Assembly: GCA_004212155.1 (NCBI GenBank)
Contig: RXIG01000020.1
Location: 1-23,052 of the forward strand
Source: an archaeon
Lineage (GTDB): Archaea > Methanobacteriota_B > Thermococci > Methanofastidiosales > NM3
Direction of reading: 5' to 3'
DNA: 23,052 nucleotides
The notes under the pieces were generated by a model that was given only the letters and a program-made list of their open reading frames with translations, ran no database searches and had not been told where the DNA came from. Position numbers and translations under genes: made by a program. Of the stretch, positions 10,904 to 16,450 are shown one piece after another (the first letter of the stretch is position 1; each line of letters starts with the position of its first letter).

Positions 10904-11479
10904 TTACCATTTGACGTCCGAGTCCGGCGGGCGTCCCGCGATCTCGAGGAGGTACTCGGTACGGCATGCCGATTCCAGTACGGACGTCAGCGAGAGAGCG
11001 TCCTCGAGCAGCTTCGCATGGACAAAGGTGCCATGGCCCCTCAGGATGACGCCCTTGTAGTCGCGCATTGCCTCGGAAACGAGCTCGGCCGACTCGTCGC
11101 TCCCTATGCCATGCTTGACGCTGACCACAGGTATCTTGTGGAAGAAGTACGAACCCTCGACGTTGCGAGGGTATATCTCATCGTAGAGCATCGAGAGCGC
11201 GATGGCATATGGGGGATGTGCGTGCACGATGGCCAGCCCCGGCGTCTTCTTGTAGATGGCGCGGTGCACCTTGATCTCAGTGCTCGCGAGGAGGATGCCG
11301 CTGTCATCCTCGTAGATGCCCGTCTCGATGATATCGGAAGGGCGCAGATCGCCGACTATCGACCCGCGGCGCGTTATGAATATACGGTCGCCCGAGCGCA
11401 CAGAGAGATTGCCCGAGTGCGAACCGACGATGCCAAGACCAAAGAGCACCTTTCCGATCCTTTTGAATTCCTCATACAT
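10904..11479 (-). CDS. Class II aldolase/adducin family protein (fuculose-1-phosphate aldolase-like)
   Basis: SGNLSVR, ASTEIKVH, IVHAHPPY, LRGHG metal ligands; probable start MYEEFK at 11479 overlapping the aor stop. Confidence 0.92.
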   Translation of the reverse strand: MYEEFKRIGKVLFGLGIVGSHSGNLSVRSGDRIFITRRGSIVGDLRPSDIIETGIYEDDSGILLASTEIKVHRAIYKKTPGLAIVHAHPPYAIALSMLYDEIYPRNVEGSYFFHKIPVVSVKHGIGSDESAELVSEAMRDYKGVILRGHGTFVHAKLLEDALSLTSVLESACRTEYLLEIAGRPPDSDVKW

Positions 11480-13241
11480 GATCCAGTCCCAACTCCTCCA
11501 GTTTGTATGGCAGCGGATTTCCCTCCGTGTCCCATCCGCGCGCCCGATAATACCCGGGAAGCATCTTCCCAAGACGGCATACCTGGCCTGCGGCAGGTCC
11601 TTCAGCGATTGGTTCCTCGAGCAGGCGCGGCGGGAGGGTGTCGTCATCGCGAGAGAATCCGCAGCGCGTGTTGTAGAGCCGCTCAAGATTCCAGATTCGC
11701 TCGCCGATGCGCATAAGGTCGGTCTCCGAATACTCGACGCCCGTGACACTCGTGAGCATGCGTGAGAAGTACTCCTCCGAGAGTGAAAACGTCGTGAAGC
11801 GGCAAAGCGAAAGGCTGTCGACCGCGGCGTTGAGGTGTTCAAGCGTGATCTCGAGAGAGACCTTCTCTCCCGTGAGCATGCGGTCGAGAAGCTTGGGTAT
11901 ACCGAGGACCTCTGAACCGAGAATGTATGAGCGAAGGTGACAGGCGCCCCTATTCGATACGGCATATGCAAGCCCCATACCCTGTGCGCCGCGAGGGTCG
12001 TAGGCGGGAAGTTCGAGACCCTTGACCTGCATTGCATATCCTGGAGCTCCGGCCGACTCGGCAAGGCGCCTGGACCCCTCGGCCAGCCGGGCGCCAATGC
12101 CTTCGCGGCGGGCTATCAGGCCGATGGTATCGGAGATGTCCATGCCGAACGAAATGGGGGCATCGAGGTGGCCCCGTTCCACGAGCTCCATCGCGCACGC
12201 GATCGTGGCGCCGCATGTTATCGTGTCAAGGCCGAGGGTGTTACACAGCTTGTTCGATGCGGCGATCGAGCGAAGGTCGAAGATGCCACAGTTAGGGCCA
12301 AGTGCCCACACGGTCTCGTACTCGGGACCACGCGAGCGCACACCATCGATGGAGGTAATCCTATCACACTGTATCGTGCACGCCGTGCAGGCGCGCCGTT
12401 TCTCCAGCATCGTGGCGGTGATCGTCTCGCCCGATATCTCATCGGCCCGGTCGGTATGCGAGCGTTGATAGTTGTTGACGGGAAACATGCCCATGGTGTT
12501 GACGATGTTGACAAGGATGGGGGTGCCAAACGCCTTGAGGCCGCGGGACGTGATGGGGTTTGCCCCAAGGAGCTTGAGCGCCTGCTCGCGGACGAATCTG
12601 AGCTGTGCAGGGTCGGCAACGGCGGTCTTGCGCGAGCCCAAAAACACGACGGCCTTGAGGTTCTTGGACCCCATGACCGCGCCAAGCCCCCCGCGCCCAA
12701 AGACGCGGTAGTCGTCGGTGGAAATGGTGGCAAAGCGCACACCTGCCTCCCCCGCGGGACCGATCATCGCAAGACCGGCGCGCGTTCCGTAGCGCCCCTT
12801 GAGTGCGGCGCCTGCAGATGGGATGTCCATGCCCCACAGATTTTCGGCAGGGACGATGGATGCCGTGCCCTCCTCGACGACAAGGAGTGATGGCGCATCC
12901 GCGCGGCCGGTGATGCTTACCGCATCGATGTCGCAGGCCTTTGCCCTGGTGGCAAGCGAACCGCCGCAGTTGGAATCGAATATCGTCATGGTAAGGGGTG
13001 AACGCGTCACGGCGCTGCAACGTCCGGACGTCGGAGCGGTGGTGCCGTTTAACGGGCCAAGAGAAAAGATGAGAGGACATGACGGGTCATAGGGGTCGAT
13101 ATGTGGCGATGCACGTTCGAAAAAGAGGCGGACGCCAAGGCCCCTGCCGCCGATGTAGTCCTGGAGGTATGGGGTATCCTCATATGCTATGGAACCGTCA
13201 GACAGCGAGACGTTGAGAAGGTTGCCTGACCATCCATACAT
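11472..13241 (-). CDS. aor: Aldehyde:ferredoxin oxidoreductase (tungsten AOR family)
   Basis: YIGGRGLG, SPLT...DSNCGG, GRGGLGAVMGSKNLKAV, CTACTIQC, GPEYET, PAYDPRG, RGACH, YYRARGWD. Confidence 0.95.
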   Translation of the reverse strand: MYGWSGNLLNVSLSDGSIAYEDTPYLQDYIGGRGLGVRLFFERASPHIDPYDPSCPLIFSLGPLNGTTAPTSGRCSAVTRSPLTMTIFDSNCGGSLATRAKACDIDAVSITGRADAPSLLVVEEGTASIVPAENLWGMDIPSAGAALKGRYGTRAGLAMIGPAGEAGVRFATISTDDYRVFGRGGLGAVMGSKNLKAVVFLGSRKTAVADPAQLRFVREQALKLLGANPITSRGLKAFGTPILVNIVNTMGMFPVNNYQRSHTDRADEISGETITATMLEKRRACTACTIQCDRITSIDGVRSRGPEYETVWALGPNCGIFDLRSIAASNKLCNTLGLDTITCGATIACAMELVERGHLDAPISFGMDISDTIGLIARREGIGARLAEGSRRLAESAGAPGYAMQVKGLELPAYDPRGAQGMGLAYAVSNRGACHLRSYILGSEVLGIPKLLDRMLTGEKVSLEITLEHLNAAVDSLSLCRFTTFSLSEEYFSRMLTSVTGVEYSETDLMRIGERIWNLERLYNTRCGFSRDDDTLPPRLLEEPIAEGPAAGQVCRLGKMLPGYYRARGWDTEGNPLPYKLEELGLDHV

Positions 13242-13260: not shown

Positions 13261-13512
13261 TTACTCGATCTTCTCGAGCTCGCTCAACACTTCCCATATC
13301 ACCGTTCGTGTGTGCATGGGCATGTTGGGATCGTTTGATATCTCGTCGAGGAGCTCGATGGCGGCGTATGCCTTTACCTTGTTCTCGACACCGCTGCGCT
13401 GCAGCTGAGAAATAGCATCGGAGGCCGCCTTCCTGATATTGCGTGGGACCATCGTATCTGCTACCACATAGTTTTGCATATATTCAATCACGTTCTGTAT
13501 TCTGTCACTCAT
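13261..13512 (-). CDS. UPF0147 family protein
   Basis: DTMVPRNIRKAA...LDEISNDPNMPMHTRTVIW signature; AGGGGTG SD before ATG 13512. Confidence 0.93.
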   Translation of the reverse strand: MSDRIQNVIEYMQNYVVADTMVPRNIRKAASDAISQLQRSGVENKVKAYAAIELLDEISNDPNMPMHTRTVIWEVLSELEKIE

Positions 13513-13657
13513 TCTAACACCCCTTTTGTCAACACTTCCCATATACAAAATATGTTCCCTTTAAATAAGTTGGTGGTGGTACCACTACTTGAAAGGAGAA
13601 AGGTTATTATAACGAGATACCATATTACATATATAAATGCTTTGATGAGGTGACCGT

Positions 13658-13882
13658 ATGTATACAAAGGTATTTGAAGTCGTCAGGGACACGGACACGC
13701 CGCTCACAAAAGAGGAAGTGGCGAAGAAGGCTGGTCTGCCAACTGCGAAGGCAACGCTCAATCTTTTGCGCCTCAAGGAGGAGGGAAAGATCGACAGCAA
13801 GGAGTCCGAACGCGGCGTGGTATGGTACCTCAAAGAGGAACATGAGCATGAAAAGGAGCGAAGGACCTCGGGTAGAAGCTAG
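13658..13882 (+). CDS. Small winged-helix DNA-binding protein
   Basis: PLTKEEVAKKAGL...LLRLKEEGKIDS...VVWYL; GAGGTGA SD; TATATAAA box upstream. Confidence 0.82.
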   Translation: MYTKVFEVVRDTDTPLTKEEVAKKAGLPTAKATLNLLRLKEEGKIDSKESERGVVWYLKEEHEHEKERRTSGRS

Positions 13883-14361
13883 AGCGACGAAAGTTCCTTT
13901 TGGTATTCTATCAGGTCGTTGACGTACTGCACCTTCAGGTCGAGGTACTCCTTGTCCTCGATGTCACCGCTCTGTTTCAATCTTTCTATCTCCTTCAAAG
14001 ACTCGTTGACCTTGTCGATCTTCACCGAGAGGATCTTTATCTGCTCCTTCTTGTACTCCTCCGGGGATTTTCGCTGCACGATTTGCTTGTAGAACTCGCT
14101 GTAGAGACTCTCAATGCGCTCCAGAAATTCGGCAGCCTCGTCGCTGAGATAAAAGATCACTTTTGCCCTGCCCTCTTCGACGTATGTCTCCTTCTCCACG
14201 AGCGAGCAGTCGATGAGTATCTTGAGATGGCGCTCAAGTCCCCCCCGCGTGAGCCCTGTTATCTTTTCCATGTCCTGGGGGCGCTTGCTTCCCTCCTTGA
14301 GGGCGTCCAGGATCATCATCCGGTATTCATTAGACATCGCCGAAAGGGCATCAATGAGCAT
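13879..14361 (-). CDS. ArsR-family wHTH regulator with C-terminal helical-hairpin (SHOCT-like) extension
   Basis: LSAMSNEYRMMILDALKEG...HLKILIDCSLVEK...FYL; C-terminal GDIEDKEYLDLK; TATA-like ATATATA about 25 nt upstream of ATG 14361. Confidence 0.88.
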   Translation of the reverse strand: MLIDALSAMSNEYRMMILDALKEGSKRPQDMEKITGLTRGGLERHLKILIDCSLVEKETYVEEGRAKVIFYLSDEAAEFLERIESLYSEFYKQIVQRKSPEEYKKEQIKILSVKIDKVNESLKEIERLKQSGDIEDKEYLDLKVQYVNDLIEYQKELSSL

Positions 14362-14547
14362 GATTAGCCGTTTTTCTTTTTTGTATATATATTTTTCTGT
14401 TTTGAAAAAACGTTTTAATTTTTTAAAAAACAAGAAAATAAGGCTAATTATTATTTTTTTAATAAATTAAAGCAAAAATTATCAAGAAAAGCTTAAATAA
14501 GAGGACATAGTAATATTTTCATAGCAAGAATTCAAGTGAGGTGCAAA

Positions 14548-14715
14548 ATGATGAACACATCCAACGCACAACGTTTCGCATGGAACGTTTTTTCATTGGT
14601 GAAAAACAAGATGACGCGTGATTCGAAGGAGACCGTTCAGCCCTCGGATGAGGAGATCACCGAGCGTCCGGAGTACGGATGTTGCGAGCGGTTCACCCTC
14701 AACACGCTCCTCTGA
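14548..14715 (+). CDS. Small hypothetical protein (55 aa)
   Basis: Not in ORF track; MMNTSNAQRFAWNVFSLVKNKMTRDSKETVQPSDEEITERPEYGCCERFTLNTLL; GAGGTG SD at 14538-14543; CTTAAATA box upstream. Confidence 0.7.
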   Translation: MMNTSNAQRFAWNVFSLVKNKMTRDSKETVQPSDEEITERPEYGCCERFTLNTLL

Positions 14716-14772
14716 TCACCAAAAAGGAAACATTAATATGTACTCAAAAAAAGTGGATAAACATCCAAGCTG

Positions 14773-15981
14773 GTGGGAAACGTGGCTGTAAAGGACAAAC
14801 TCGAACTGGAGCGTCTTCTCTCGATTGTCGAGGACATTGAAAGGATGTACAAGAACAACGAGATCAGCGAAGAGACCTACAGGGAGATGAAGAAGAACTA
14901 CAAGGAGCGCATCAAGAAGCTCCAGAATCGCATCATGGACCTCGACCATGAACCATCCGAGACCATCAGCCGCGACATCGAACAGATGACCACCGAGGTG
15001 ACGGAGAACGTCAACGAGGTGCTCAAGAACACGATGCGCATGCTCAAGGAGCAGCTCAAGACGGCAGGCATGAACAATCCTACCGGCGAGAAGTACGAGC
15101 GTGAGGAAAAGATCACCGTCCCCCTGGAGGGCGACGCGCCCATTGAGCTCAAATGCCACGTCGAACGCGGCAAGATCTTCGTGAAGGGAAGCGACGACAA
15201 GAACGTGGAGATCCGCGTCGTGAAGTCGTGCAAATCCTCACAGCGCGAACGCTGCGAGGAGGTGCTCGATGAGATCGACCTCGACTACAAGGTCTATCTC
15301 AGGGACACGATGCGCGTTATCAGGATTGCCCCGGACATGCCGCGCGGCACATCGGTAGACCTCTACATATCCATTCCGCACACCACGATGCCCTCGCTTG
15401 AACTCACTACCGAGAAGGGCAACATCACGCTCAAGACGCTTGACTGCGAAATGTGCCGGCTCACGTCGGAGAACGGGAACATCGACATCAGGGAGCTAAG
15501 TGCCGATTCCATGTATATTGCCGCAGAGACTGGTTCGCTCTCACTTGAGGACATGAACGTCAAAAGCAAGCTTGCGCTCTCGAACGAGAATGGGAACATA
15601 CGCATCGTAAACGTCACGGGGTCCGAGCTTGCCGCAAGCACCGAGAAGGGCAACATCACAACGAACATTTCATTTGACCGTGGCTCGCTTGCCACCGAAC
15701 TGGGCAGCATCAAATTCAAGACACGCCTGTGGGAGCGCGAACAGTCATATGACGTCGCTTCAGAGCTCGGGTCGATCCGCATCGTCGTAGACGAGGCCGA
15801 GCTGCCACTGCGGGTGAGGGCATCTGTCGAGAAGGGCTCTATCACCAACACCACCTACCTCGAACGCAGGGCCGGAGAACATCCGTCAAGCTTTGAATCG
15901 CCCTCATATGAAAAGGCTTCCAACAGGATATCGCTCAAGGCGGCGACCGAGCTTGGCACCGTTCGCATCTATGAGGAATGA
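14773..15981 (+). CDS. DUF4097-family beta-strand repeat protein with N-terminal helical (SHOCT-like) domain
   Basis: About ten xE(K/N/L/T/R)G(N/S/K/T)(I/L/V) repeats; N-terminal NEISEETYREMK; no signal peptide; start GTG 14773 or 14782. Confidence 0.85.
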   Translation: MGNVAVKDKLELERLLSIVEDIERMYKNNEISEETYREMKKNYKERIKKLQNRIMDLDHEPSETISRDIEQMTTEVTENVNEVLKNTMRMLKEQLKTAGMNNPTGEKYEREEKITVPLEGDAPIELKCHVERGKIFVKGSDDKNVEIRVVKSCKSSQRERCEEVLDEIDLDYKVYLRDTMRVIRIAPDMPRGTSVDLYISIPHTTMPSLELTTEKGNITLKTLDCEMCRLTSENGNIDIRELSADSMYIAAETGSLSLEDMNVKSKLALSNENGNIRIVNVTGSELAASTEKGNITTNISFDRGSLATELGSIKFKTRLWEREQSYDVASELGSIRIVVDEAELPLRVRASVEKGSITNTTYLERRAGEHPSSFESPSYEKASNRISLKAATELGTVRIYEE

Positions 15982-16033: not shown

Positions 16034-16450
16034 ATGCAAAGGGTAACACGATTTGGCGTCTCAGTGCCTACGACGCTTATGAAAAAGTTCGATGATATCA
16101 TCGAGTCGGAACGCTACAAGAACCGTTCGAAGGCGATATCGGAACTGATACGCTCAAAGGTGAGCGAATCCGAGTTCATGAAGGGGTCACATTTTCTCAT
16201 AGGCACCATCACGTATCTCTACGATCCCACTGTGCACTCCGTCCTCAAGCAGCTCCACGATGCCACCGTCTCGTCAAAGGCAACGGTGCATGCATCAACG
16301 AGCGTTCCTGCGAAGGAGAACAAGGTGCTTGGCGTGCTCACGTGCGAAGGGGACTGGTTTGACATAAAGGAGACGTATCAAAGGATAAACAGGACAAAGG
16401 GCGTCGAGTACTGCAAGGCTTCGTTTGTCAATCCCACCATCGAGGAGTAA
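16034..16450 (+). CDS. NikR-like ribbon-helix-helix regulator (nickel ligands absent)
   Basis: TRFGVSVP..LMKKFD....YKNRSKAISELIR and GTITYLYD ACT-like domain. Confidence 0.85.
   Translation: MQRVTRFGVSVPTTLMKKFDDIIESERYKNRSKAISELIRSKVSESEFMKGSHFLIGTITYLYDPTVHSVLKQLHDATVSSKATVHASTSVPAKENKVLGVLTCEGDWFDIKETYQRINRTKGVEYCKASFVNPTIEE

Follow-up and report, generated by a model that had tools for sequence, protein, structure and literature searches.

Whether a DNA-binding regulator and a putative sensor can be joined by two copies of one small helical hairpin is the question raised by a divergent gene pair in a 23,052-nucleotide stretch of archaeal DNA from a member of the Methanofastidiosales (contig RXIG01000020.1 of assembly GCA_004212155.1), the whole of which is referred to here as the window. 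One gene of the pair encodes an ArsR/HxlR-type winged-helix regulator and the other a soluble protein with a Toastrack (DUF4097) domain. An earlier note on this DNA had proposed, from the sequence alone, that the Toastrack protein binds its own regulator through a 41-residue segment present in both. The parts of the two genes that bear on this proposal are as follows, with positions given in the window and with Toastrack residues numbered throughout in the 402-amino acid (aa) frame that begins at GTG 14773.

13879-14361, minus strand: gene for the ArsR/HxlR-type winged-helix regulator, 160 aa, prolonged at its C-terminus by a helical segment; the stop codon occupies 13879-13881 (Pfam, orthologs, AlphaFold2 (AF2) model).
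14149-14361, minus strand: winged helix-turn-helix (wHTH) DNA-binding domain of the regulator, residues 1-71 (columns of alignment A1, secondary structure of the model, Foldseek).
13882-14025, minus strand: SHOCT-like hairpin of the regulator, residues 113-160 (hhalign; in the AF2 model, formed by the last part of helix 100-131 and by helix 136-159, with residues 132-135 as the turn).
14782-15981, plus strand: gene for the soluble Toastrack (DUF4097) protein, 399 aa (Pfam, AF2, Foldseek); the alternative GTG 14773 would give 402 aa.
14800-14943, plus strand: N-terminal SHOCT-like hairpin of the Toastrack protein, residues 10-57 (hhalign; AF2 helices 3-27 and 33-56; sub-threshold Pfam SHOCT match).
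14944-15081, plus strand: low-confidence linker, residues 58-103 (predicted local distance difference test (pLDDT) below 50 at residues 58-82 and 93-103; a weakly predicted helix at 76-97).
15088-15972, plus strand: Toastrack beta-rich domain, residues 106-400 (all-beta in the model, pLDDT mostly above 90).

The source genome of the window, G000, is 89.8% complete and yielded 28,015 six-frame open reading frames (ORFs). It was compared with its relatives in a set of 41 genomes comprising families f1 (7, including G000), f2 (6), f3 (17), f4 (4) and f5 (7). Three alignments were used: A1, containing 21 regulators; A2, containing 12 Toastrack proteins; and A3, covering the control region in five f1 genomes. 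The Pfam cut-offs applied were 22 bits for HTH_5, 20.8 for HxlR, 22.9 for DUF4097, 27 for SHOCT and 29 for LiaF-like_C.

The two 41-aa segments are translated exactly as the earlier note had quoted them, and they align without gaps in the register that it had proposed, with 9/41 identities. No other ungapped 41-mer diagonal from anywhere in the two proteins scores higher than this register. The corresponding BLOSUM62 score of 50 was reached by 0/20,000 fixed-register shuffles (mean -19.9, standard deviation 14.4), and nine identities were reached by 0.6% of such shuffles. A chance resemblance of two charged coiled-coil segments might nevertheless be argued from the Glu/Lys-rich composition of both regions and from the outcome of BLASTP, which with composition adjustment misses the hairpin alignment and places its best match elsewhere (E 0.63). 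This explanation is contradicted by comparison of the profiles. Alignment of A1 with A2 gave a single match, between regulator residues 113-157 and Toastrack residues 10-54 (45 columns, E 4.4e-5), and the helical halves alone scored 36.9 in hhalign. By contrast, reversed profiles scored 12.7 and 12.8, 200 column shuffles had a mean of 11.0 (standard deviation 2.5) and 200 heptad-class shuffles a mean of 11.2 (maximum 18.6); with a maximum of 20.8 in all 400 shuffles, the similarity is better than that of shuffled coiled-coil controls, as the idea of a shared segment had supposed.

Searches of the G000 ORFs led to the same pair. The best non-self match of a model of the regulator hairpin was the Toastrack N-terminus (E 0.016-0.16), and a model of the Toastrack hairpin ranked the regulator first when built wide and second when restricted to the 41-residue core, with only three non-self ORFs reaching at least 10 bits. 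The one match placed above the regulator in the core search lay in a surface protein of 498 aa, in its cytoplasmic tail (Pfam SHOCT E 5.6e-4). The register of the hairpins is moreover constant across three families. Given the shuffle and reversal controls and the genome-wide ORF ranking, the likeness is not a coiled-coil accident: the hairpins are homologous, and a chance resemblance is hardly credible.

The 498-aa surface protein is encoded on contig C16 of G000 (39093-40586, minus strand) and consists of a signal peptide, an extracellular region, one transmembrane (TM) helix and a terminal SHOCT-like hairpin that sits just after the TM helix (DUF1707 E 0.048). It resembles the PKD-TM-hairpin proteins of the metagenome loci described below, and no regulator was seen in its neighborhood.

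The earlier description of the hairpin as SHOCT-like also stands, and the hairpin is conserved. Canonical SHOCT (PF09851) is a short terminal two-helix unit found on many unrelated globular domains, with the same hydrophobic/acidic pattern around the turn, whereas the window hairpins score below the Pfam cut-off. The Toastrack hairpin reaches 17.1 bits (E 0.0047), short of the required 27, and the regulator ortholog of G009 aligns with positions 1-26 of the 28 in the SHOCT model (E 0.011). Because neither window segment reaches the cut-off, “SHOCT-like” is the accurate label. No match to DUF1707 (SHOCT-like, PF08044) was listed for either window hairpin.

The distribution of the two genes was then compared across the 41 genomes. 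A Toastrack ortholog with an N-terminal hairpin is present in 13/41 (f1 7/7, f2 4/6, f4 2/4, f3 0/17 and f5 0/7), and the C-terminal half of the regulator has strong matches in exactly these 13; five further matches (E ~1e-4) are to ORFs of 544-547 aa in f3. The pair is adjacent and divergent in 12/13 genomes, at a distance of 114-477 bp. In the thirteenth, G003, a contig break separates them, with the Toastrack gene at the end of one contig and the regulator at the start of another, so that the genes are linked in every relative whose contig allows a test, consistent with the neighborhood conservation that the earlier note had looked to. Flanking genes vary among the families and the pair alone is conserved; a divergent pair is thus maintained across three families of the Methanofastidiosales. 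Because hairpin-less Toastrack genes occur elsewhere, namely in G009, G012, G015, G018 and the f5 genomes, the association is specific to the hairpin-bearing form of Toastrack. When one genome per species was scanned with a pattern, the regulator turned up in no other order; the sole further match, to the helix-turn-helix part only, was in Haloquadratum.

Taken by itself, such an arrangement could be that of an ordinary local regulator, in which an ArsR-type protein represses or activates the Toastrack gene and the hairpins serve only homo-oligomerization, as copies of a mobile and promiscuous module. Divergent regulator-target pairs are common, and ArsR-family proteins form dimers using their terminal helices. 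Promiscuity of the module would agree with the report of SHOCT in 63 different architectures (PMC3581485). The identity of the regulator's partner in other relatives bears on this explanation.

Profile searches were made of the phylum (133 genomes) and of 1.84 billion representative proteins. The phylum yielded one additional full-length regulator, in G009, where it lies divergent to a gene for a 430-aa protein. The hairpin is all that this protein has in common with the Toastrack family (residues 24-67 against Toastrack residues 10-53, E 4e-5); it lacks a Toastrack domain, and none of its Pfam matches exceeds the cut-off. The next gene after this hairpin partner encodes a transporter of the major facilitator superfamily (MFS). 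The spacer between regulator and partner (locus L067, 847-1457, 611 bp) contains an imperfect tandem duplication with short ORFs unrelated to the small protein of f1 considered below.

The larger search returned 282 matches at E ≤0.001. Outside the four clusters of the regulator family, the hairpin motif also terminates several full-length but remote relatives; one remote relative bears the NCBI label Bathyarchaeota. Eight remote relatives were aligned and 12 metagenome loci (133 ORFs) were fetched, and a neighboring gene with a hairpin was found in 7/12. The neighbors in L069, L071, L073, L074 and L075 are single-pass membrane proteins with three PKD domains and the hairpin at the C-terminal extreme, after the TM helix. 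L069 also encodes the ATPase of a MacB/FtsX-type ATP-binding cassette (ABC) system with a C-terminal hairpin; the matches of the L074 and L075 ATPases are weaker. N-terminal-hairpin proteins occur in L078 and L080; bactofilin and zinc-ribbon domains were identified in the complete protein, that of L080, to which the protein truncated by a contig end in L078 is homologous. Four of the five remaining loci (L070, L072, L076 and L077) are cut by contig ends, and the fifth, L079, has no hairpin neighbor and a regulator whose hairpin is itself doubtful.

When the ORFs of the 12 loci were scored with the Toastrack-hairpin model, 17/133 reached at least 10 bits, comprising nine regulators and eight neighbors. 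Control loci were provided by the ArsR-type genes of family f6, which encode membrane-anchored wHTH proteins without a hairpin: in eight loci with such hairpin-less genes, 0/45 ORFs reached 8 bits. Because L074 and L075 are near-duplicates and the lineages are few, the metagenome counts are offered as the description of a pattern, not as a formal test. It is nonetheless the hairpin, and not Toastrack, that stays with the regulator when the other domain of the partner changes. That the hairpin is kept despite this change is comparative evidence that it matters for pairing, and since related regulators elsewhere also adjoin hairpin-bearing partners, the hairpin probably links regulator to sensor. 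The local-regulator explanation does not predict that the hairpin should be kept in the G009 partner after replacement of the domain, nor that hairpins should be present on bactofilin, PKD and ABC ATPase neighbors and on none of the genes in control loci, and it is regarded as distinctly unlikely.

The explanation favored here, at somewhat better than even probability, is that the locus is a conserved two-gene signaling module in which the hairpins are matching docking modules that join the regulator to the Toastrack protein, whose state sets regulator activity. The C-terminal helical stalk of the regulator ends in the hairpin in the predicted structure, and the presumed cytoplasmic Toastrack protein would begin with the matching hairpin on a flexible linker. 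Through the two hairpins the regulator and the Toastrack scaffold would be held together in a complex, whether the hairpins pack against each other in a helical bundle or both join a hairpin-based assembly. The state of the Toastrack protein, which by analogy with bacterial YvlB and LiaX would be expected to reflect envelope or membrane stress, would then set the amount of free regulator at the shared divergent promoters, including that of the regulator itself. Homology of the hairpins, linkage and co-occurrence of the genes and persistence of the hairpin across partners are observed; what this scheme adds by prediction is contact between the two proteins, a direction of control (sequestration or activation), a site on the DNA and a kind of signal.

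Several points weigh against docking of the two proteins. Contact between them is a prediction; a complex modeled from regulator residues 86-160 and Toastrack residues 1-100, both supplied as alignments, scored 0.29 and 0.17 against a mark of 0.32 in runs made without controls, values that weigh on neither side. The sole published test of SHOCT self-association, made with a bacterial SHOCT fused to CD4 domains, was negative (PMC3581485), and SHOCT-like domains have been predicted by those who defined them to be inner-leaflet membrane anchors, not partner binders (PMC11237479). Pfam SHOCT gives no match to the regulator hairpin of the window, and its matches to 8/12 Toastrack orthologs at E ≤10 (best 6.8e-5) are all below the cut-off. 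Hairpin similarity averages 53.5 within a genome and 59.2 between genomes; because same-genome hairpins are no more alike than cross-genome ones, there is no signal of co-evolution, and the absence of a within-genome excess also counts in favor of the local-regulator explanation. PspA was not found in G000, at its 89.8% completeness. Finally, the related genomes are not independent of one another, and the metagenome loci, near-duplicates among them, derive from few lineages.

The prediction of membrane anchoring underlies the main rival to docking, namely co-localization without contact. Each hairpin would anchor its own protein at the inner membrane face, and the regulator would be held off DNA and freed on stress. 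In keeping with the published prediction, the hairpins of the 498-aa surface protein and of the PKD membrane partners are juxtamembrane, directly after the TM helix. A docking site for the recruitment of a cytoplasmic regulator would, however, be just as likely to lie next to the membrane. Both window hairpins are also highly charged, with 8 Lys/Arg and 12 Asp/Glu among the 48 residues of the regulator hairpin and 11 of each among the 48 residues of the Toastrack hairpin, and anchoring alone leaves the clustering of hairpin genes beside hairpin regulators unexplained. Co-localization without contact is judged to be unlikely.

A broader form of the docking explanation can be put forward tentatively, as an idea more doubtful than probable: SHOCT-like hairpins may constitute a general heterotypic docking code for archaeal wHTH regulators. 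On such a code, a hairpin-ended wHTH protein would be recruited or released by sensors as different as Toastrack proteins, bactofilins, PKD receptors and MacB-type ABC ATPases.

Inspection of the individual proteins supports their assignment. The regulator scores 31.0 bits against HTH_5 (PF01022), above the cut-off, as do 21/21 aligned homologs, and marginally exceeds the cut-off for HxlR (PF01638) with 22.6 bits, as 18/21 homologs also match. Its start is ATG 14361 and not the upstream TTG 14433, because all orthologs begin at ATG 14361; the longer ORF from TTG 14433 merely runs through the AT-rich promoter. The AF2 model has a mean pLDDT of 92.2, and the recognition-helix stretch T38-L46 shows no variation across the 21 regulators of A1. 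Foldseek matched the model to ArsR, HxlR, MarR and PadR structures, including HlyU, BigR, SqrR, CzrA and SmtB. These are generic wHTH folds only, the long-helix matches (PadR 5x11 and PH1932 1uly/2cwe) having a root mean square deviation of ~12 Å. Comparison with a protein atlas likewise returned only archaeal ArsR/HxlR clusters, with scores of at most 0.89 that serve as leads only. Database homologs carry the name “Candidatus Methanofastidiosa archaeon.” Within f1 the regulator is far more conserved than its neighbor, with 76-78% identity against 42-46% for the Toastrack protein.

ArsR/SmtB metal and metalloid sensors have a conserved Cys/His ligand set in helix alpha-3 or alpha-5. A metal sensor of this type was considered and rejected, the regulator having one His and a single Cys that is replaced in orthologs, with no invariant Cys column in the alignment.

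The Toastrack protein scores 70.1 bits against DUF4097 (PF13349), well over the cut-off, with the Pfam span covering residues 130-361, and 12/12 orthologs match. GTG 14782 is the probable start, because the ATG-bearing orthologs of G004 and G006 begin at the equivalent position, three codons after 14773. The mean pLDDT of the AF2 model is 85.2, and the best Foldseek matches of the body are “putative adhesin” structures (4qrk, 3pet, 3ljy and 4opw). A sub-threshold LiaF-like_C match (16.5 bits against 29) was noted in the Pfam scan of the window. No transmembrane-like segment is present in the Toastrack protein, for which the maximum KD19 was 0.76, and none was seen in the regulator or in the product of the small ORF described below. 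Sub-threshold matches to the Pfam CdvA-like coiled-coil domain occur in 12/12 Toastrack orthologs (best E 4.9e-5); it is possible that they connect the hairpin with ESCRT-related archaeal proteins, or that they express mere helical likeness.

The intergenic region and the small ORF within the spacer have the following features.

14362-14547, no strand: AT-rich divergent control region (GC 0.21, compared with 0.54 for the window; conserved blocks in the five-genome alignment).
14369-14400, minus strand: near-invariant f1 block of 32 bp with a TATA-like run at 14384-14391 (invariant columns 8-39 of A3).
14483-14500, plus strand: rightward B recognition element (BRE)/TATA-like element, core AAAAGCTTAAATA (9-mer search, alignments).
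14548-14715, plus strand: small gene, 55 aa (53-63 aa in relatives; a corresponding ORF occupies this position in 7/7 f1 genomes).

Both the AT-rich divergent spacer and the 55-aa ORF are therefore present as first described. The 32-bp block would be the regulator promoter, with a very short leader. Allowing at most one mismatch, the 9-mers CAAAAAAGC and AAAAGCTTA were found in 12/12 and 11/12 intergenic regions, respectively. The BRE/TATA-like element consists of AAAAGCTTA and then A/T-rich bases, and every clade has it upstream of the rightward gene; it also precedes the hairpin-partner gene in f2, f4 and G009, and a paralog of the small ORF. This element is a putative promoter. A search for operators found no other motif common to all clades. 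In f2, a palindrome of 12-16 bp with a CGCG core (for example, CGTTTTCGCGAAAACG) lies between the divergent TATA-like elements (L010 2559-2582; also L011, L012 and L013) and is a candidate operator. The core CGCGAAA is shared by f4, and the palindrome is absent in f1 despite the invariant recognition helix. In 3/5 aligned f1 genomes a conserved element ATTAATATG (window 14731-14760; L002) is found ~40 nucleotides before the Toastrack start, followed by an A-run of 7 nucleotides in G000 and 8 in the 94%-identical G001; the Toastrack gene may be served by a second promoter here.

The small gene is placed, in f1, between the BRE/TATA-like element and the Toastrack gene. The ends of its product are conserved, with a VFSF-like motif at the N-terminus and a DRNTFNVL-like motif at the C-terminus, and G000 and G001 differ by four synonymous changes and one non-synonymous change. 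Twelve database homologs were found, none with a Pfam family, and the ORF was not found in f2, f3, f4 or f5. A paralog exists in 5/7 f1 genomes, the G000 copy lying at C15:36089-36250 (L029 3090-3251), and precedes an MFS_3 transporter gene in G000 and G002. Where they align, the promoter regions of the G000 paralog and of the small gene have ~80% identity, rising to near identity around the BRE/TATA block, and the small-protein family may belong to the same regulon. Second copies were also examined in L039, L040 and L041, with a near-identical promoter-upstream module of ~95 nucleotides. Because it is found only in f1, with a paralog elsewhere in the genome, the small gene is real but a family-specific add-on, and the three-gene circuit envisaged in the earlier note gives way to a core of two genes.

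Neighboring genes in the window show synteny confined to f1. They comprise UPF0147 at 13261-13548 (E 1.3e-29), a 74-aa protein at 13658-13882 with weak wHTH-like matches and a NikR_C-containing protein at 16034-16450 (E 2.4e-12). The ORF at 11472-13241 is presumably an aldehyde:ferredoxin oxidoreductase gene, and a similar ORF flanks the G009 regulator.

Three known arrangements invite comparison with the window pair. YvlB has a Toastrack domain with N-terminal SHOCT-like bihelical domains, is predicted to be soluble and intracellular and has been tied to envelope-stress signaling (PMC11237479); two-hybrid tests have shown its interaction with PspA and LiaH (PMC9239133), which counts in favor of the docking explanation. 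The window protein shares with YvlB, LiaX and LiaG of Firmicutes the Toastrack beta-rich domain and, like YvlB, has a SHOCT-like N-terminus. However, the Firmicutes genes lie in operons with PspC or LiaFSR under two-component control, whereas the archaeal gene is divergent to a hairpin-bearing wHTH regulator. Membership of a Psp/Lia operon was rejected, as no linkage to PspA, PspC, LiaI/F or a two-component system was found; the single PspC-domain gene in G000 lies on another contig.

The second arrangement involves DUF2089 proteins, which combine a zinc ribbon, a helix-turn-helix and a C-terminal SHOCT-like domain, occur in bacterial four-gene Toastrack neighborhoods and have been read as converting membrane-associated signals into transcription (PMC11237479). 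In both cases a DNA-binding protein with a terminal SHOCT-like domain is encoded beside Toastrack, but the window regulator is an ArsR/HxlR winged helix without a zinc ribbon, and the module is divergent and of two genes. Membership in DUF2089 was also rejected: no match to the family was listed, and the regulator, with its single Cys, starts directly with the wHTH.

[quoted passage not shown] The HAAS domain has three helices, with a GxP kink, and is present on the partner only, in contrast to the two-helix hairpin found on both window proteins. Assignment to this dyad was rejected as well, the regulator not being of PadR type and neither protein having a listed match to DUF1700 or DUF1129.

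The suggestion that the arrangement had not been described holds in part. SHOCT-like N-termini of Toastrack proteins, bacterial DUF2089 regulators and the HAAS-PadR dyad are already in print (PMC11237479). On the other hand, no paper proposing hairpin-to-hairpin pairing of regulators and partners was found in the literature searched; matching hairpins are not stated to be the link in the excerpts of PMC11237479, and “ArsR” is absent from its main text, although its supplements may hold archaeal examples. The window pair is thus an archaeal variant of a known theme, and the wider pairing rule is new within the literature searched.

SHOCT and SHOCT-like hairpins are widespread without a demonstrated function, that of SHOCT itself being described as not established (PMC3581485), and the coupling of Toastrack to transcription is mostly inferred. 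Against this background the locus offers a minimal two-protein system in which linkage through hairpins can be tested with a DNA fragment of 186 bp and two small domains, both soluble. The pairing is found again with partners of four or five unrelated architectures. If the linkage is physical, it would represent a new class of one-step archaeal signaling and would guide the annotation of regulators now described as a wHTH with an unknown C-terminus. Should the docking code prove true, it would be a phosphorylation-free counterpart of two-component signaling and would provide the first defined role for SHOCT, a question open since 2013.

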